This document shows positions 453 to 6,331 of a stretch of 11,824 nt of DNA, piece after piece. Origin of the DNA: a virus; the UHGV virus genome UHGV-1586438; one strand, 5' to 3'. The notes under the pieces are model-generated. The model saw only the letters and a list, made by a program, of their open reading frames with translations. It ran no database searches and was not told the origin of the DNA. Position 1 is the first letter of the stretch. Each line of letters opens with the position of its first letter. The translations under genes and the position numbers were made by a program.

Positions 453-1910
453 ATGAATACATCTCATGTAAGAGTTGTTACTCATATGTGTGGGTTCCTG
501 GTTTGGCTCTATAGTCTTTCAATGTTGCCACCAATGGTTGTAGCATTGTTTTATAAAGAAAAAAGCCTGTTCGTTTTCTTTATAACTTTCGTTATATTTT
601 TTTGCATTGGTGGCGGAGCGTGGTATACAACTAAGAAATCTGGCATTCAATTACGTACCCGTGATGGGTTTATTATAATTGTAATGTTTTGGATTTTGTT
701 TTCTGTTATTAGTGCATTCCCTTTATGGATTGACTCAGAACTTAATTTAACGTTCATTGATGCTCTGTTTGAAGGGGTTTCTGGAATAACAACAACAGGA
801 GCAACTGTAATTGATGATGTTAGTTCATTACCTCGGGCAATTTTGTACTATCGGTCACAGTTAAATTTTATAGGTGGTTTAGGAGTTATTGTTCTGGCGG
901 TTGCTGTATTGCCATTATTGGGTATTGGTGGTGCAAAGCTTTATCAGTCAGAAATGCCGGGGCCATTTAAGGATGACAAACTCACTCCCCGCCTGGCCGA
1001 TACGTCACGGACACTGTGGATAACTTATTCTTTATTAGGTATTGCTTGTATTGTCTGTTATAGACTTGCAGGAATGCCTTTGTTTGATGCTATTTGTCAC
1101 GGGATTTCCACAGTTTCGCTTGGTGGTTTCTCAACTCATAGCGAGAGTATCGGATATTTTAATAACTATTTGGTTGAGCTGGTGGCTGGTTCTTTTTCCC
1201 TGCTATCGGCTTTCAACTTCACTCTTTGGTATATTGTTATTAGCAGGAAAACGATAAAACCTTTAATCAGAGATATTGAACTTCGTTTCTTTCTGTTAAT
1301 AGCCTTAGGGGTGATCATTGTTACCTCTTTCCAGGTCTGGCATATAGGTATGTATGACTTGCATGGAAGTTTTATTCATTCGTTTTTTCTTGCCAGCTCC
1401 ATGCTCACTGATAATGGTTTAGCTACGCAAGATTATGCAAGTTGGCCCACGCACACGATAGTGTTTTTGCTGTTGTCAAGTTTCTTTGGGGGATGTATAG
1501 GTTCAACTTGTGGTGGAATTAAGTCACTTCGATTTCTTATACTTTTCAAACAAAGCAAACACGAGATAAATCAGCTTTCTCATCCCAGAGCGTTGTTGAG
1601 TGTAAATGTAGGAGGGAAGATAGTTACAGATCGTGTAATGAGGTCTGTATGGAGTTTCTTTTTTCTTTATACTCTCTTCACGGTGTTTTTTATACTGGTG
1701 TTAAATGGTATGGGATATGATTTTCTTACATCATTTGCAACAGTGGCTGCATGTATTAATAATATGGGATTAGGTTTTGGGGCTACTGCATCGTCATTCG
1801 GAGTGCTTAATGACATTGCAAAATGTTTAATGTGCATAGCTATGATTCTTGGTCGCCTTGAAATTTATCCTGTTATTATATTGTTTTCAGGTTTTTTTTG
1901 GCGCTCCTAA
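453..1910 (+). CDS. trkG: TrkH/TrkG-family K+ uptake membrane protein (prophage moron)
   Basis: 485-aa polytopic membrane protein from ATG 453; the track's 435 start is a TTG six codons upstream. It shows TrkH-family signatures: repeated pore-loop glycine motifs (GVSGITTTGATV, LGGFSTH, ATQDYASWP), the EMPGPFKDDKLTPRLADTSRTLW segment, and FGGCIGSTCGGIKSLRFLILFKQ. N-terminus MNTSHVRVV and length match my recollection of E. coli K-12 TrkG, which sits immediately downstream of the Rz/Rz1 homologues in the Rac prophage. The gene is markedly more AT-rich than its neighbours. Confidence 0.9.
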   Translation: MNTSHVRVVTHMCGFLVWLYSLSMLPPMVVALFYKEKSLFVFFITFVIFFCIGGGAWYTTKKSGIQLRTRDGFIIIVMFWILFSVISAFPLWIDSELNLTFIDALFEGVSGITTTGATVIDDVSSLPRAILYYRSQLNFIGGLGVIVLAVAVLPLLGIGGAKLYQSEMPGPFKDDKLTPRLADTSRTLWITYSLLGIACIVCYRLAGMPLFDAICHGISTVSLGGFSTHSESIGYFNNYLVELVAGSFSLLSAFNFTLWYIVISRKTIKPLIRDIELRFFLLIALGVIIVTSFQVWHIGMYDLHGSFIHSFFLASSMLTDNGLATQDYASWPTHTIVFLLLSSFFGGCIGSTCGGIKSLRFLILFKQSKHEINQLSHPRALLSVNVGGKIVTDRVMRSVWSFFFLYTLFTVFFILVLNGMGYDFLTSFATVAACINNMGLGFGATASSFGVLNDIAKCLMCIAMILGRLEIYPVIILFSGFFWRS

Positions 1911-1996
1911 TATATGGCTGATTTATAATTGTGAGTTTAATATTATGTTGACTCACTCATTGATCCAATACCTAACTTTACCAGCAACCCCTCCGT

Positions 1997-2030
1997 CCCC
2001 AGTAGCACTGGCTGCTGGGGTGCGTTTTAT
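1997..2030 (+). terminator. Candidate intrinsic terminator downstream of trkG
   Basis: Hairpin CCCCAGTAGC (1997-2006) / loop ACTG / GCTGCTGGGG (2011-2020), a 10-bp stem with one G-U pair, followed by TGCGTTTTATT. The U-tract is interrupted, so efficiency is uncertain. Confidence 0.4.
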
Positions 2031-2047
2031 TCATAAAGCAAGGCTGT

Positions 2048-2839
2048 ATGAGCGAGAAATTAAAGATAGTCTATCGCCCATTACAAGAATTGTCACCGTA
2101 TGCGCACAACGCCAGGACGCACAGCCCTGAGCAGGTGGCACAACTGGTAGAAAGTATTAAGCAATTCGGCTGGACTAATCCGGTGCTGATTGACGAAAAG
2201 GGCGAAATTATTGCGGGTCACGGTCGTGTTATGGCGGCTGAAATGCTCAAAATGGATTCTGTTCCGGTCATTGTTCTGTCTGGCCTGACGGATGAGCAGA
2301 AAAAGGCGTACCGCCTGGCAGATAATCGCCTGCCGATGAATGCTGGCTGGGATGAAGATCTGTTGCGGATGGAGCTGTCGGACCTAATCAATGCTGATTT
2401 TGATGTCTCCCTGACAGGCTTCATCCCGACAGAAATTGATGAACTGTTGACGGATGTTTTGCCCGGTACAGGAAATGAGGAGGAGCCGTATACGACGAAA
2501 ATTGATACGCCTGTTTATGAGCCGTCGGGCGGTAAACCGGATATCAGTGAACTGTACGACGATACGAAAACTCAGGAGCTGATCAGCCGGATACGTTCGG
2601 CGTCCCTTGAGCCTGATATTGAGAAATTCCTCCTGTGTGCGGCAGAACGTCACACGGTGTTTAATTTCAGCAGAATTGCGGACTATTACGCTCACGCCCC
2701 CTCTGAAATTCAGTGTTTTTTCGAGGAGTCGGCGCTGGTGATCATTGATTATCAGCAGGCTATTGAAAATGGATTTGTCCGGATGACGCAGCGCATGGTG
2801 GAGATCATGCATGGTGGTGAGGAGGAGGAATATGCGTGA
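2048..2839 (+). CDS. ParB N-terminal domain (ParB/sulfiredoxin-like nuclease) protein with an uncharacterised C-terminal half
   Basis: 263-aa ORF with AAGG 5 nt upstream of the ATG. The N-terminal ~100 aa (LQELSPYAHNARTH...PVLIDEKGEIIAGHGRVMAA...VIVL) has the ParB-N/Srx pattern, including a GxGR-type motif. The acidic C-terminal part is unassigned. Position (after lysis genes, before terminase) is typical for phage ParB-like proteins. The K-12 Rac gene ynaK occupies the equivalent position but is much shorter. Confidence 0.7.
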   Translation: MSEKLKIVYRPLQELSPYAHNARTHSPEQVAQLVESIKQFGWTNPVLIDEKGEIIAGHGRVMAAEMLKMDSVPVIVLSGLTDEQKKAYRLADNRLPMNAGWDEDLLRMELSDLINADFDVSLTGFIPTEIDELLTDVLPGTGNEEEPYTTKIDTPVYEPSGGKPDISELYDDTKTQELISRIRSASLEPDIEKFLLCAAERHTVFNFSRIADYYAHAPSEIQCFFEESALVIIDYQQAIENGFVRMTQRMVEIMHGGEEEEYA

Positions 2840-3764
2840 TGATTTTTGCGCCTTTATTCTGACTCACGGGCGACCGGACAAAGTTCTGACTTACCGGACG
2901 TTGCGTCGTGCTGGCTATACCGGGAAAATTTTTATCGTTGTTGATGATGAAGATAAGACACGGAATCAGTACATGGCTGAATTTGGTGAACAGGTGCTGG
3001 TGTTTTCCAAAGCCGATATCGCCAGTCGTTTTGACGAAGCCGATAATTTCTGTGACCGCCGCTCAATTTTTTACGCCCGTAATGCCTGTTTCGACCTGGC
3101 AAAACTGGTCGGGTGTAAATACTTCATTCAGCTCGATGATGATTATCACGAGTTCCAGTTTCGGGTGGATCGCAACTATGACCAGGCCTATTTTCCGATA
3201 AGGAAACTGGATGCGATCCTTTCTGAAATGCTGGCGTACTACGAATCAATACCTGCTCTTTCCATCGCTATGTCGCAGGGCGGGGATTTTCTTGGTGACA
3301 ATGGCGGCCATGCTTCGTGGGTGAAACGCAAGGCAATGAACAGCTTTATCTGTTCGGTTGATCGACCGTTCTCATTCATGGGGCGCATTAACGAGGATGT
3401 GAATACGTACACGAATCTCGGTCGCTGTGGTGAATTGTTTATGACGATCGGTGCTGTCCAGTTAGGGCAGAAACAGACGCAGAAAAACAGCGGTGGAATG
3501 ACCGAGCTGTATCTGGATTCCGGAACCTACGTTAAAAGTTTTTACTCCGTCATGTATGCGCCGTCGTGCGTAAAAATCTCACTGATGGGTGCCAGCCATA
3601 AACGCATTCACCATCAGGTCACCTGGAACAACGCTGCAGTAAAAATCCTTCACGAAAAATACAGGAAGAAGACACCCTGCATATCAATGGGGGTGACAAA
3701 TGATTCCGTATTCGAAAGTCGAGTCTCTGGCAGCGTGCCGGATGACTGCACAACAAATCGCTGA
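2832..3764 (+). CDS. GT-A-fold glycosyltransferase-like protein (DxD motif); substrate unknown
   Basis: 310-aa ORF starting at ATG 2832, with GGAGGAGGAA immediately upstream and an 8-nt overlap (ATGCGTGA) with the ParB-like stop, implying translational coupling. Motif order resembles GT-A/GT2 enzymes: FILTHGRPD (beta1), IFIVVDDEDKT (acidic DD motif), FIQLDDDYHEF (DxD). The assignment is motif-based inference only. Confidence 0.6.
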   Translation: MRDDFCAFILTHGRPDKVLTYRTLRRAGYTGKIFIVVDDEDKTRNQYMAEFGEQVLVFSKADIASRFDEADNFCDRRSIFYARNACFDLAKLVGCKYFIQLDDDYHEFQFRVDRNYDQAYFPIRKLDAILSEMLAYYESIPALSIAMSQGGDFLGDNGGHASWVKRKAMNSFICSVDRPFSFMGRINEDVNTYTNLGRCGELFMTIGAVQLGQKQTQKNSGGMTELYLDSGTYVKSFYSVMYAPSCVKISLMGASHKRIHHQVTWNNAAVKILHEKYRKKTPCISMGVTNDSVFESRVSGSVPDDCTTNR

Positions 3765-3951
3765 CGTTCTGGATGTTGATCTGAACCGACTGAAAGAAAA
3801 TCGGGAAGCAATGACAGATTTTTATGCGGCCATCCGTAAGGGCAGAGCGAAAGGTGAAGCCGAGTTACGAGCGGCATTGTTTAAGCTTGCCAGAAAAGGG
3901 GATGCCTTTGCTCTGCGCGAACTACTCAGGGTGGATAAAAATCAGGACTAA
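3700..3951 (+). CDS. Small HTH-like protein of unknown function, immediately upstream of terS
   Basis: 83-aa ORF with GGGGGTGA 5 nt upstream of ATG 3700. It is predicted helical with a helix-turn-helix-like stretch (MTAQQIADVLDVDLNRL) and a basic C-terminus. Its stop (3949-3951) is 3 nt before the terS ATG. It overlaps the last 65 nt of the GT-like gene, so the start is uncertain; an alternative ATG lies at 3742. Confidence 0.5.
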   Translation: MIPYSKVESLAACRMTAQQIADVLDVDLNRLKENREAMTDFYAAIRKGRAKGEAELRAALFKLARKGDAFALRELLRVDKNQD

Positions 3952-3954
3952 CTG

Positions 3955-5049
3955 ATGAGCAGACCGGACTGGGGGGCGTTGCAGCAGGAGTATATTGCTG
4001 AATACACCCGCTCCGGTATATCTCCGGTGGCATGGTGTGAAGCAAGGGGACTGAATTACGCAACAGCCCGTCGTTACATCAAAAAAACTCCGAAAAATGC
4101 GCAGACAGAAATGTGCAAAACTGCGCAAAAAAGTGCGCAGAAAAAATCTGCGCAGACTGCACAAAAGCGGAACGAAAAATCTCAGGAAAAAAAGCCAGTA
4201 TTCGATGCGGGCCTGAATGAGGGCGACGCGGAGGAATTTTCGTTCTGTCCCGATGAATTCGGCATTTCTGACCAGCAGGCTAAGTTTGCGATGCTTGTTG
4301 CTCAGGGTAAAAAGCCGACAGAGGCGTACCGACTAGCCGGTTATGAGGGGCAAGGTGCGACAGCTAACAGCAACGCCAGTCGTATGCTTAGAAATGCCAG
4401 GGTTTTTCGCGCTATCAGCTACTTCCGCAATCAGTACCAGAAACGCTATACCGCAGACCTGGATTTACTAGTGAGTCAGTTGATGGCTATTGTCCTGGCC
4501 GACCCCAATCAGCTTGCACAATTTCGCCGTGTTAACTGCCGTTATTGCTGGGGCGAGAATCATCTCTACCAGTGGCGCGATATAGCAGAATTCGACAAGG
4601 CAGCGGCGCAGGCTTCCAGAGATGGCAAACCCGAACCGGAATATGGAGGCCTCGGCTTTGTTGATAACGCCATACCCAATCCGGACTGCCCGAAGTGCTG
4701 CGGTGAGGGAACGGGACAGCTTTATATGGCTGATACCACTCTGCTTGATGGGGATGCGCGGCAATTATATGCAGGGGCAAAATTCGGAAAATTCGGCGTT
4801 GAGATCCTGCTGGAGGATAAGGCTGCCGCCCGGCGTGAATTGTTGCGTTTGTTTTCTGCTGGCGGGGCTTTATGTGCAGATAAACGGCTACAGGAACTGG
4901 AAATTGAACGGCGCAGAATGGAAAACCAGAAGCTGCGCAAAGAGATCGAAACGGTGGAAGATAATGAACATCCCCAGCCTGTGGCGATCAATATTAATGT
5001 GGTTGATGCCAGAGTAAGGAGTGATGAAGATGATCTCTCCGACGCTTAA
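3955..5049 (+). CDS. Terminase small subunit (Terminase_2/P27-like core with N-terminal HTH extension)
   Basis: 364-aa ORF with AGGA 7 nt upstream. It has an N-terminal HTH-like region (GISPVAWCEARGLNYATARRYIKK), a low-complexity xAQK linker, a core resembling the Terminase_2 signature (QQAKFAMLVAQGKKPTEAYRLAGYEG...SNASRMLRNARV), paired CxxC motifs and a C-terminal coiled-coil-like segment. It lies directly upstream of, and overlaps, the terminase large subunit gene. Confidence 0.75.
   Translation: MSRPDWGALQQEYIAEYTRSGISPVAWCEARGLNYATARRYIKKTPKNAQTEMCKTAQKSAQKKSAQTAQKRNEKSQEKKPVFDAGLNEGDAEEFSFCPDEFGISDQQAKFAMLVAQGKKPTEAYRLAGYEGQGATANSNASRMLRNARVFRAISYFRNQYQKRYTADLDLLVSQLMAIVLADPNQLAQFRRVNCRYCWGENHLYQWRDIAEFDKAAAQASRDGKPEPEYGGLGFVDNAIPNPDCPKCCGEGTGQLYMADTTLLDGDARQLYAGAKFGKFGVEILLEDKAAARRELLRLFSAGGALCADKRLQELEIERRRMENQKLRKEIETVEDNEHPQPVAININVVDARVRSDEDDLSDA
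4098..4166 (+). repeat. Six phased direct repeats of TG(C/T)(G/A)CA(G/A)A inside terS; candidate pac / TerS-binding site
   Basis: Copies begin at 4098 (TGCGCAGA), 4112 (TGTGCAAA), 4122 (TGCGCAAA), 4134 (TGCGCAGA), 4149 (TGCGCAGA) and 4158 (TGCACAAA), with 9-15 bp spacing. They coincide with the low-complexity peptide TAQKSAQKKSAQTAQK. Confidence 0.5.
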
Positions 5050-6331
5050 TGTGCCTCAGGCGCGATTTCTTTCAATGCCCCATAAATTTAAAGCCTATAT
5101 TGCTGGTTTTGGCTCGGGCAAAACATGGGTTGGGTGTGGCGGCATATGCAAGGGGATTTGGGAGCATCCAGGTATAAATCAGGGATATTTTGCGCCAACG
5201 TATCCCCAAATTCGCGATATTTTTTACCCTACAGTGGAAGAAGTTGCTGCTGACTGGGGATTGAACGTAAAAATTAATGAGGGAAATAAAGAGGTTCACT
5301 TTTATTACGGACGCCAGTATCGGGGAACCACTATCTGCAGATCGATGGAGAAGCCACAAACGATCGTCGGTTTCAAAATTGGTAATGCGTTGGTGGATGA
5401 ACTGGACATTTTGCCGAAGGAAAAAGCCAGAACGGCGTGGCGCAAGATAATTGCACGTATGCGTTATAAGATTGATGGACTTCGCAACGGTATTGACGTT
5501 ACAACCACGCCGGAAGGATTCAAATTTGTCTACGAGCAGTTTGTTAAAGCCGTGCGTGAAAAAACAGAGCTGGCCTCACTGTATGGTCTGGTGCAGGCAT
5601 CTACTTTCGATAATGAAAAGAACCTGCCAGCAGATTACATTCCTTCGCTTCTTGAATCATACCCTCCAGAGCTGATTAAAGCCTATCTTCGAGGACAGTT
5701 TACTAACCTGACAAGTGGTACTGTTTACCATCAGTTTGACCGGAAACTGAATAATTGCGAAGAAGTGGAGCAGCCAGGGGAGCCGATTTATATTGGGATG
5801 GATTTTAACGTTGGAAAGATGGCGGGAATCGTCCATGTGCTGCGTTTGGGGCTTCCATGTGCGGTAACTGAAATCATCAATGCCTACGATACGCCGGATA
5901 TGATCCGCATCATTAAAGAACGCTTCTGGCTGTATGATGGGAATGATTACCGGAAAGTGAGGGAAATTTATATTTATCCAGATGCTTCCGGGGATTCCAG
6001 AAAATCAAGTAACGCAAGTACGACGGATATAGCCCAGCTTAAGCAGGCTGGTTTTAACGTTGTGGTGAACAGCTCGAACCCGCCAGTAAAAGATCGCGTT
6101 AACTCAATGAATGCAATGTTCTGCAATGCCAATGGTGAGCGTCGCTATAAAGTTAATGTGAAGCGTTGCCCGTTATATGCCGAATCTCTGGAGCAACAGG
6201 TCTGGGATGAGAAGGGGGAGCCTGATAAAAAATCTGGCAATGATCACCCGAATGATGCCGGAGGTTATTTCATCGTTAAGCAATTCCCTATTGTCAAACC
6301 GACCGGAAGAGTCACATCACTTCGGATTTAA
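5030..6331 (+). CDS. Terminase large subunit (ATPase/nuclease)
   Basis: 433-aa ORF from ATG 5030, with AAGGAG at 5016-5021 (8-nt spacing); the track's 5021 start is a GTG too close to the SD. N-terminal Walker A P-loop (AGFGSGKT), acidic Walker B-like stretch (NALVDELD), size and position between terS and portal all fit. The start overlaps the terS 3' end by 20 nt. Confidence 0.85.
   Translation: MISPTLNVPQARFLSMPHKFKAYIAGFGSGKTWVGCGGICKGIWEHPGINQGYFAPTYPQIRDIFYPTVEEVAADWGLNVKINEGNKEVHFYYGRQYRGTTICRSMEKPQTIVGFKIGNALVDELDILPKEKARTAWRKIIARMRYKIDGLRNGIDVTTTPEGFKFVYEQFVKAVREKTELASLYGLVQASTFDNEKNLPADYIPSLLESYPPELIKAYLRGQFTNLTSGTVYHQFDRKLNNCEEVEQPGEPIYIGMDFNVGKMAGIVHVLRLGLPCAVTEIINAYDTPDMIRIIKERFWLYDGNDYRKVREIYIYPDASGDSRKSSNASTTDIAQLKQAGFNVVVNSSNPPVKDRVNSMNAMFCNANGERRYKVNVKRCPLYAESLEQQVWDEKGEPDKKSGNDHPNDAGGYFIVKQFPIVKPTGRVTSLRI

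Follow-up and report, generated by a model that had tools for sequence, protein, structure and literature searches.

What do two overlapping genes ahead of the terminase genes, one coding for a ParB-like protein and the other for a glycosyltransferase (GT), do for the phages that carry them, and on what acceptor does the GT act? The pair lies in an 11,824 nt stretch of the UHGV virus genome UHGV-1586438 (here, the window), part of a Rac-like Escherichia coli prophage. Solitary homologues of the TAGT (TET/JBP-associated glycosyltransferase) family of GTs are present in 288 of 753 GT-bearing phages and were left unexplained (PMC13216743), as were the ~65% of GT contigs in which Pyle et al. (bioRxiv 10.1101/2023.12.21.572611) found no base-modifying neighbour. 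The TAGT subset described here, which is large and very conserved in phages of bacteria and archaea, is not solitary: these GTs have a partner domain of their own, with translational coupling between the two, and a fixed place ahead of the terminase genes.

Gene A (2048–2839 of the window) encodes full-length YnaK, an acidic ParB-like partner of 263 aa (pI 4.5), and gene B (from the ATG at 2832 to position 3764) encodes a basic TAGT-family GT-A glycosyltransferase of 310 aa (pI 8.0, or 8.6 for residues 1–280); both are on the plus strand, as are all of the features described below. The genes overlap by the 8 nt ATGCGTGA (2832–2839), within which is the gene A TGA stop codon (2837–2839), and the coupling junction (2820–2839) also includes the purine-rich, SD-like AGGAGGAGGA (2820–2829), which is within gene A, 2–6 nt 5′ of the gene B ATG, and is composed of codons for the acidic tail of gene A. 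The first-pass annotation had noted both the overlap and an SD for gene B within gene A, which the coordinates confirm, and had proposed that the two genes are probably expressed as a unit, which is supported by conservation of the overlap across loci (see below). The pair is confirmed to be real and more than a chance arrangement. To the left, a terminator-like hairpin (1997–2020) with a 10-bp stem and a T-run follows trkG and no promoter-like site is seen between it and gene A, from which we infer that the cassette is read from an antiterminated late transcript. To the right, a small ORF (3742–3951; 69 aa with the PGAP start, 83 aa if counted from 3700) resembles the HTH segment of TerS (phrog_309, 8e-23) and corresponds to a PGAP CDS in locus L001 (21695–21904); it is followed by TerS (3955–5049; Terminase_2) and TerL (5021–6331; Terminase_6N/6C).

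Gene B had been described as a GT-A-like enzyme with a DxD motif (FIQLDDDY), and its sequence places it in a named family, TAGT, that the earlier description lacked. The match to Pfam PF20691 (7.6e-35; 121.1 bits against a threshold of 27.5) extends over residues 8–222 and HMM positions 4–205 of 205, there is a match to phrog_842 at 1e-103, and the PGAP name is 'GREB1-related protein'. Foldseek comparison with the PDB returns only GT-A proteins (K4CP, SpsA, glycogenin and SunS; E ~1e-4) and the best BFVD matches are TAGT-domain proteins (E 7.7e-23); a PDB sequence search identified no solved relative. Pfam and Foldseek thus find both of the folds that had been proposed for this locus, GT-A here and ParB/Srx in gene A. 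FIQLDDDY corresponds to residues 98–105 and contains the DDD (D102–D104; 3135–3143) that represents the DxD metal and nucleotide-sugar motif, invariant in an alignment of 21 sequences that includes Lactobacillus phages. R14, N187 and D189 are also invariant in this alignment and E188 nearly so, with R14 and the N-E-D at 187–189 fitting an R...DDD...ED(Y/F) pattern in which EDV takes the place of EDY/F as the third motif. There is an additional, strongly conserved C-terminal region at approximately residues 200–280 (phrog_31222), and then an E. coli-specific extension of ~30 aa (3672–3764; pLDDT <50) that overlaps the next ORF, homologues stopping at about residues 280–290. GT identity between E. 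coli and viruses of Lactobacillus, Bacteroides and Haloarcula is 43–60%. Neither gene product has a membrane segment or signal peptide evident when the sequences are read by eye.

Gene A matches phrog_620 (8.5e-91) and is named by PGAP as a 'ParB/Srx family N-terminal domain-containing protein'. Residues 1–135 (2048–2452) comprise a ParB/Srx NTPase-fold N-domain with a short helical segment, and the ParB-like domain previously read here scores above the Pfam gathering score (ParB_N, PF02195; 28.9 against 26.3 bits). Foldseek aligns ~140 residues with ParB, Noc, PadC and KorB at 1e-6 to 1e-5 and also matches SerK and Srx, and a profile search matches Noc and ParB chains. The conserved motifs are N21-x-R23, G57-H-G-R60 and D92-N93 (the ParB reference motifs being NPxQPR, GERR and ENxQR for boxes I, II and III), and the GHGR aligns with the GERR of Noc, with His in place of Glu. 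ParB is fused to N6_N4_Mtase or Methyltransf_23 domains in phages (PMC12704722), and the suggestion that a ParB-N module often fused to methyltransferases here has a GT as its partner agrees with the matches of YnaK residues 10–144 to the N-terminus of the PADLOC MTase_II model (2e-38) and to phrog_498 (1e-50); phage adenine methylases, too, have N-termini that share up to 55% identity with this segment. Gene A has no methyltransferase Pfam match, and only its N-terminal 144 aa fit these fusions.

Beyond the N-domain is a conserved linear motif, YTTKIDTPVYEPS (2489–2527; residues 148–160), which is in a predicted disordered linker and can be generalized as YTxKIxxPxYEP. Y148, T149, K151, P155, Y157 and P159 are invariant in the partner alignment, and the Y, P and Y remain so in a wider alignment spanning bacteria, an archaeal virus and proteins with only the C-terminal domain (CTD). 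The acidic, helical CTD itself (2543–2812; approximately residues 166–255) has no Pfam model; together with the motif it forms an acidic segment of ~110 aa. The median pI is 4.5, and the domain is C-terminal in all of its 1189 clusters at 50% identity. Stand-alone CTD proteins of 135–148 aa adjoin the 5′ side of the GT in L096, L106, L110, L113, L134 and Vibrio phage pv27, and the ParB-N domain is dispensable in some lineages. The invariant GT partner is the YnaK C-terminal domain and not ParB-N. An AF2 model of YnaK has residues 1–135 folded, 136–170 with pLDDT <50 and helices at 172–255, although the run used 19-sequence alignments and confidence is low in the C-terminal halves of both YnaK and the GT. 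A partition (ParABS) role for gene A was considered and rejected, as there is no HTH, ParA or parS: gene A has no Pfam HTH family match, its acidic CTD is unrelated to that of ParB, and no ParA is encoded in the window or the prophage. There are no notable repeats in positions 1900–4000, and those present are short, resemble chance or codon-run matches, and were discounted as parS-like sites. The packaging-operon context likewise argues against YnaK being a partition protein.

The equivalent region of K-12 Rac had been suggested to contain decayed versions of both genes, as ynaK and ydaY. This is correct for ynaK, a truncated remnant of gene A in which only the first 254 nt match. It is not borne out for ydaY, which has no similarity to the GT and is 98% identical to a gene located after the tail-tube gene in intact Rac-like prophages. 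The K-12 GT has been lost by a deletion of ~11.5 kb.

A scan of viral contigs with the GT alignment recovered almost only near-identical E. coli prophages, and wider sampling came from a genome-contig scan with the GT and a partner-based viral scan. Co-occurrence of the pair, which the first-pass annotation had suggested as a check, is evident from both sides. In all 63 species-level loci, which represent many phyla, a co-oriented partner gene immediately precedes the GT gene. The genes overlap in 57 of these loci, most often by 11 nt (26 loci) or 8 nt (22 loci; together 48/63). Starting from the CTD, the GT is immediately 3′ in 72 of 80 viral loci and follows a single inserted gene in seven more (79/80). 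Two loci with apparent partner–GT gaps (L130 and L131) are not exceptions, and contain tandem second GTs. Overlapping pairs are also present in the haloarchaeal virus HHTV-2 and in phages phi jlb1 and c5, such that the cassette is found in phages of many bacterial phyla and of haloarchaea, and its carriers include virulent and large lytic phages. A large ORF begins a median of 460 nt past the GT stop in 108 of 112 loci (~96%), and nearly all of these ORFs belong to terminase families (Terminase_6, Terminase_3, GpA, TerL_ATPase and T7-like), with at least five TerL families represented; the terminase, portal and capsid families vary widely among carriers. Some loci have a second tandem GT, a GT–methyltransferase fusion, or a His-phosphatase plus cytidylyltransferase gene between partner and GT, and one has a capsid gene followed by four GT2 genes. 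In E. coli, 1580 genomes match the pair and 889 cover at least 80% of it; the intact pair is in ~16% of complete genomes. Purifying selection acts on both genes: dN/dS is 0.07–0.15 among the closer enterobacterial variants, whereas between genera dS is saturated and dN/dS unusable.

Canonical DNA has no hydroxyl for O-glycosylation, and to our knowledge phage DNA is glycosylated only on pre-hydroxymethylated or hydroxylated pyrimidines. Enzymes of the TAGT family usually require 5hmC, 5hmU or a sugar that the DNA already bears. An enzyme that would make such an acceptor was sought at several levels. TET/JBP (PF12851) or a ThyA-like hydroxymethylase is neither annotated nor detected in the whole Rac-like prophage, neither a dioxygenase nor any ThyA-like protein is discernible in the complete genomes of phi jlb1 (38 kb) and c5 (31.8 kb), no TET/JBP or hydroxymethylase is in the precomputed Pfam neighbourhoods of the cassette, and no hydroxymethylating family is seen repeatedly, either among the neighbours of the cassette or in a set of 296 non-redundant upstream ORFs taken from ~150 loci. 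The absence of TET/JBP rests on annotations, precomputed Pfam assignments, neighbour clustering and batch Pfam counts, and as the latter cover the top 25 families, single rare hydroxymethylases could escape them. There is also no primary alpha- or beta-GT beside the cassette. C5 DNA methylases are encoded ~5 kb upstream in 9 of 54 loci, and several unannotated proteins remain in c5 and HHTV-2. With no recognizable 5hmC- or 5hmU-making enzyme in the sets examined, the usual TAGT acceptor appears to be missing.

The explanation we favour, tentatively and at a little short of an even chance, is that the cassette encodes a DNA glycosyltransferase of two subunits, active at about the time of packaging. 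The two proteins would form a self-contained, macromolecule-glycosylating module of tailed phages, in which gene B would be the catalytic subunit, a member of the TAGT/base-J-glucosyltransferase/GREB1 superfamily using a nucleotide-sugar via the DDD, and gene A its obligate partner, produced in a fixed ratio through translational coupling. It is the acidic CTD with YTxKIxxPxYEP that would cooperate with the GT, presumably in a physical complex. By analogy with the ParB-like proteins that activate phage DNA (thymine) dioxygenases on dsDNA (PMC13229309), the ParB/Srx N-domain would most likely engage or clamp DNA and gate the GT. With transcription of the cassette presumably at the start of the late/packaging operon, the likeliest target is phage DNA that has been replicated and is being packaged or about to be, and a sugar mark on it may provide protection from, or evasion of, host nucleases.

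Several observations are consistent with this two-subunit DNA glycosyltransferase. TAGT membership is strong and the characterized viral members act on DNA-linked acceptors; the T2/T6 beta-glucosyl-HMC-alpha-GT belongs to PF20691 (PMC13216743), and GT-A phage GTs that resemble JGT glycosylate 5hmC (bioRxiv 10.1101/2023.12.21.572611). The partner is obligate from both directions (63/63; 72/80 plus seven), its ParB-N module also occurs in DNA methyltransferases, and its predicted AF2 layout is that of the dioxygenase-activating ParB-like proteins. A basic GT is paired with an acidic partner, terminase genes of several families are next in 108/112 loci, some loci have glycan-tailoring extras, and dN/dS is low. 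Against it are the lack of a hydroxyl in canonical DNA together with the failure to find TET/JBP or a hydroxymethylase, the dispensability of ParB-N where the partner is CTD-only, the low confidence of both subunit models over their C-terminal halves, and the view of Pyle et al. (bioRxiv 10.1101/2023.12.21.572611) that GTs with no neighbouring base-modification enzyme are less obviously DNA-directed. One form of DNA glycosylation would be independent of hydroxymethylation, with the YnaK C-domain as helper and ParB-N as gate for a TAGT-type GT that places the sugar directly on a canonical base (e.g. at an exocyclic amine) or on DNA ends; we consider this unlikely.

A further argument against a DNA target is that GREB1, in the same superfamily, is a protein O-GlcNAc transferase (PMC7968844), and the acceptor could be a protein here too, either a Tyr or Thr in the partner's own motif, in a glycogenin-like manner, or a packaging or virion protein of the same operon. 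The invariant Tyr/Thr-rich motif is in a predicted disordered linker and is retained in CTD-only partners, although it may equally be a docking peptide. That sequences remain 45–60% identical between E. coli and Haloarcula viruses implies a universal acceptor, which the co-conserved partner fits, whereas the diversity of terminase, portal and capsid families among carriers leaves no common virion protein evident. The cassette adjoins structural and packaging genes, one locus has the four GT2 genes after its capsid gene, and no enzyme making a DNA acceptor was found in the genomes and neighbourhoods examined; however, the characterized viral and prokaryotic TAGT enzymes are all DNA-acting and ParB-N is otherwise joined to DNA-modifying enzymes. 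A protein acceptor seems unlikely. We regard as distinctly unlikely a canonical TAGT enzyme acting on 5hmC, 5hmU or glucosyl-hmC, where an unrecognized enzyme of the phage would carry out the hydroxymethylation, or where it would come in trans (the GT acting, for instance, on the modified DNA of other phages). It matches the known chemistry of the family, ParB and GT genes often co-occur with 5mYOX in metaviromes, and the upstream C5 DNA methylases (9/54 loci) and the unannotated proteins of c5 and HHTV-2 could be accommodated, but the phi jlb1 and c5 genomes leave no space for a dioxygenase or a ThyA-like enzyme and show no sign of one, no such family recurs in the 296 upstream ORFs, and the presence of the cassette in virulent and large lytic phages is contrary to a prophage-defence role.

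An acceptor that is neither DNA nor protein, such as an RNA 2′-OH, a nucleotide or second messenger, or an envelope polymer, would imply an anti-defence or host-modifying function, and is quite improbable. GT-A phage GTs are structurally similar to TarP, a teichoic-acid GlcNAc transferase (bioRxiv 10.1101/2023.12.21.572611), ParB/Srx folds include small-molecule kinases and NTP binders (as in the SerK and Srx matches), and some cassettes contain the inserted cytidylyltransferase/His-phosphatase gene. Yet the envelope polymers of E. coli, Lactobacillus, Bacteroides and Haloarcula are wholly unlike one another while the GTs are 43–60% identical, no membrane segment or signal peptide is evident by eye, and the fixed pre-terminase position is left unexplained. 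That the pair is a decaying or selfish moron, functionless in E. coli today, is suggested by the many truncated copies (889 of 1580 genomes covering at least 80% of the pair) and the K-12 remnant; this is scarcely credible given the dN/dS of 0.07–0.15, the invariant catalytic residues, and the architecture and overlap retained by carriers from different phyla, an archaeal virus included.

If the target of the two-subunit enzyme is DNA, the cassette would represent a new base-modification chemistry or, alternatively, depend on an acceptor pathway that is hidden, with a bearing on restriction and type IV evasion, sequencing artefacts and E. coli prophage biology; the hydroxymethyl-independent form would be a DNA modification chemistry so far undescribed. 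A partner or virion protein target would represent a new class of phage protein glycosylation. The Rac-like E. coli prophage is an easy genetic system, and K-12, without the GT, is a natural null background.

The cassette can be compared with four known systems. TAGT enzymes, which include the T2/T6 GT and the GT-A DNA GTs of 5mYOX phage clusters and are more distantly related to the trypanosome base-J glucosyltransferase and GREB1, share with gene B a full-length HMM match, the GT-A fold, the DDD, the R...DDD...ED pattern, phage origin and basic character. Gene B differs in reading EDV, in its extra region at ~200–280 (phrog_31222), in its coupling to a YnaK-type partner before the terminase genes, and in being in a cassette without TET/JBP, a C5-methyltransferase plus TET, or a ThyS-like enzyme. 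Partition ParB proteins (Spo0J, Noc and KorB, which are CTP-gated clamps) have the same N-domain fold and phosphate-binding Arg/Asn motifs that are recognizable in YnaK, whereas YnaK has no parS-binding HTH or ParA, has GHGR for GERR, and is acidic. The ParB-N/methyltransferase fusions are, like YnaK, phage or prophage proteins, and the N-terminal 140 aa are homologous at up to 55% identity, but an acidic domain and not a methyltransferase follows ParB-N in YnaK, and the catalytic role falls to a GT encoded by its own, translationally coupled gene. The ParB-like activators of the 5mYOX176/ParB176 type (PMC13229309), by description, have the architecture predicted for YnaK: a ParB NTP-binding domain (NBD), short helices, a disordered linker of ~35–50 aa and a CTD. 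These activators similarly lack an HTH DNA-binding domain, adjoin an enzyme of DNA-modification type and are often near terminase genes; the YnaK family differs in having CTD-only versions and in that its adjacent partner is not a 5mYOX dioxygenase but a GT, in 63/63 and 79/80 loci.

The window lies in an E. coli prophage of the Rac-like lambdoid type and covers its late region. The lysis genes Rz/Rz1 (10-315) are at the left end, with an Rz1-like ORF (71-256) embedded within Rz (10-315), and a trkG moron (435-1910) is inserted between these and the packaging module (region 435-2020), with a strong terminator-like hairpin (1997-2020) 3' of trkG. Gene A (2048-2839) and gene B (2832-3764) are followed by a small HTH ORF, TerS, TerL, portal and head genes, in that order. 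The gene B start (2832) and the gene A stop codon TGA (2837-2839) are both within ATGCGTGA, as described correctly in the first-pass annotation together with the coordinates and the overlap, and there is a AGGAGGAGGA run (2820-2829) just 5' of the gene B ATG. Because of the strong hairpin after trkG and because no promoter-like site was seen between it and gene A, the pair is probably transcribed only as part of an antiterminated late transcript. The E. coli gene B product carries a ~30-aa C-terminal extension (3672-3764) missing from its homologs, which overlaps a small ORF (3700/3742-3951) resembling the HTH segment of TerS (phrog_309); the TerS of the window is unusually long at 364 aa.

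The ParB-like and GT-A identities proposed in the first-pass annotation both stand, and its wider interpretation holds in part. Gene A is full-length YnaK, and its residues 1-135 form a ParB/Srx NTPase-fold domain (Pfam, 28.9 bits) with Foldseek matches to ParB, Noc, PadC and KorB (~1e-6). Conserved motifs of the domain are N-x-R, G-H-G-R and D-N; YnaK has a His where the canonical ParB GERR motif has its Glu. Phage ParB-DNA methyltransferase fusions carry a homologue of this module at their N-termini (PADLOC MTase_II, 2e-38; phrog_498, 1e-50), with up to 55% identity by tblastn. An invariant YTxKIxxPxYEP motif lies within predicted disordered residues 136-170, followed by an acidic helical domain (residues ~170-255) for which no Pfam family was found; the domain is C-terminal in every case among its 1189 clusters at 50% identity. 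Gene B matches PF20691, 'TET-associated glycosyltransferase' (TAGT), over the entire model (Pfam, 7.6e-35) and phrog_842 (1e-103), and PGAP names it 'GREB1-related protein'. No solved structure related to it by sequence was found in the PDB. Structure searches with its AF2 model, of which the N-terminal half is confidently predicted, gave PDB matches to GT-A glycosyltransferases only, and matches to TAGT-domain proteins in a viral structure library (E 7.7e-23). The invariant positions are R14, D102-D104 (the DDD of FIQLDDDY), N187, D189 and many in the family-specific C-terminal region. The glycosyltransferases are basic (median pI 8.7) and the partners acidic (pI 4.5-4.7).

The pair matches 1580 of 5426 complete E. 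coli genomes, with at least 80% of it present in 889. Homologs with 40-47% identity are present in Lactobacillus phages phi jlb1 and c5, Nocardia phages, Vibrio phages and the haloarchaeal virus HHTV-2, and a one-genome-per-species scan gave 70 loci (45-60% identity) in Proteobacteria, Bacteroidota, Firmicutes, Kiritimatiellae, Planctomycetes, Acidobacteria, Saccharibacteria and other groups. All 63 loci with upstream sequence have a same-strand partner ORF upstream of the glycosyltransferase gene, and the two overlap in 57, by exactly 8 or 11 nt in 48 of these; the HHTV-2 pair likewise overlaps by 11 nt. Two loci that seemingly break the adjacency are not exceptions, the intervening gene being a tandem second glycosyltransferase. 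Tandem TAGT-type genes are present in some cassettes (L131 3581-5272; L130 9160-10011), and in L131 the first of them forms a fusion with a SAM-dependent methyltransferase (Methyltransf_23), perhaps a sign that the sugar is methylated or is a tailored di-saccharide. In a partner-based search, the glycosyltransferase gene is immediately downstream in 72 of 80 viral contigs. Seven others have one inserted gene of ~320 aa exactly between the two (L230 1419-2384; likewise L207, L226, L227, L233, L236 and L241), a fusion of His_Phos_1 (histidine-phosphatase) and cytidylyltransferase-like (TagD/RfaE-II-like) domains that suggests these cassettes have their own means of making an activated donor. In six lineages, including the 191-kb Vibrio phages, the partner is only 135-148 aa and consists of the motif and acidic domain, with no ParB-N found anywhere in the locus. 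The invariant core is therefore the motif and acidic C-domain plus the glycosyltransferase, with ParB-N a frequent add-on.

Downstream sequence was long enough at 112 loci, and 108 of them have a large ORF beginning a median of 460 nt past the glycosyltransferase stop. A batch Pfam scan identifies these ORFs as terminases of several unrelated families (Terminase_6N 59, Terminase_3 51, T7-like 10, Terminase_2 9, GpA 5, TerL_ATPase 5). At three loci the first large ORF (set A5) encodes a DNA polymerase III beta sliding clamp and not a terminase. The pair does not adjoin the terminase in the 191-kb Vibrio phages; the main exception is Vibrio phage pv27 (191 kb; L160 6459-7888), where a 139-aa partner with only the C-domain and the glycosyltransferase are amid primase, exonuclease and helicase genes. 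Genes of the usual phage kinds, for replication and recombination, lie 5' of the cassette, along with HNH genes and DNA methylases. Recurrent among these ORFs (sets A6 and A7) are PAPS-reductase-domain proteins (six non-redundant ORFs, one with DUF3440) and N6/N4 and C5 DNA methylases, and there are a few sugar-nucleotide enzymes (NTP_transf_3, epimerase, GDP-mannose dehydratase). One metagenomic phage (L158 17837-20316) has the cassette and four consecutive GT2-family genes directly 3' of the capsid gene, which may be a separate virion-glycosylation module.

K-12 retains a remnant. As the first-pass annotation supposed, K-12 ynaK is a decayed gene A, with the first 254 nt and nothing more surviving (window 2048-2301 versus L003 4001-4604); its 87-aa product is a ParB-N fragment only. 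The companion suggestion that ydaY is a decayed glycosyltransferase gene is wrong, since ydaY has no similarity to it and is 98% identical to the gene 3' of the tail-tube gene in intact prophages. Rac of K-12 has thus been stripped of the 3' part of ynaK and of the glycosyltransferase, terminase, head and proximal tail genes by a ~11.5 kb deletion, which joined ynaK to ydaY. This truncated ynaK is reported to raise the MICs of six antibiotics in a 2026 overexpression screen (PMC12924614).

Characterised TAGT-family members glycosylate 5hmC, 5hmU or glucosyl-hmC (PMC13216743; bioRxiv 10.1101/2023.12.21.572611). The annotation of the complete Rac-like prophage lists no TET/JBP dioxygenase or hydroxymethylase, and neither do those of phi jlb1 (38 kb) and c5 (31.8 kb). 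None was found among the unannotated proteins of these genomes or in precomputed Pfam neighbourhoods, and none recurs among the neighbours or 296 non-redundant upstream ORFs; rare single cases are possible. A canonical hydroxymethyl-dependent role, with the acceptor hidden or supplied in trans, is improbable. Canonical DNA has no hydroxyl, so DNA glycosylation would require either a priming step that has escaped recognition or a novel chemistry. 'Solitary' TAGTs and glycosyltransferase contigs with no base-modifying neighbour have been noted as unexplained (PMC13216743; bioRxiv 10.1101/2023.12.21.572611). The acceptor could instead be a protein, notably the Tyr/Thr motif of the partner, and GREB1, of the same superfamily, is a protein O-GlcNAc transferase (PMC7968844); we consider this unlikely, though the likeliest of the alternatives. 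An acceptor of some other type (RNA, an envelope polymer or a small molecule, for example) is a shade more doubtful than a hidden hydroxymethylated base, and it is very improbable that the cassette is a relic; dN/dS is 0.07-0.15 for both genes among enterobacterial variants.

The best-supported reading, which we hold tentatively, is that the pair forms a two-subunit glycosyltransferase whose target is replicated phage DNA at the time of packaging; we infer the physical complex, DNA as the substrate and the biological role. The gene B product would be the catalyst, with the C-domain of the partner binding it and activating or positioning it. ParB-like dioxygenase activators and the ParB-methyltransferase fusions offer an analogy for ParB-N, which may engage DNA in an NTP-gated manner. 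The system can be put to the test in E. coli. No published characterisation of a cassette of ParB-like partner and TAGT was found in the literature searched. Phage thymine dioxygenases need ParB-like activators on dsDNA, and these activators and gene A have a common domain layout (PMC13229309). The TAGT enzyme family and its association with ParB are already known; the partner-coupled, terminase-proximal, hydroxymethylase-less cassette with its invariant acidic partner domain is an uncharacterised variant.
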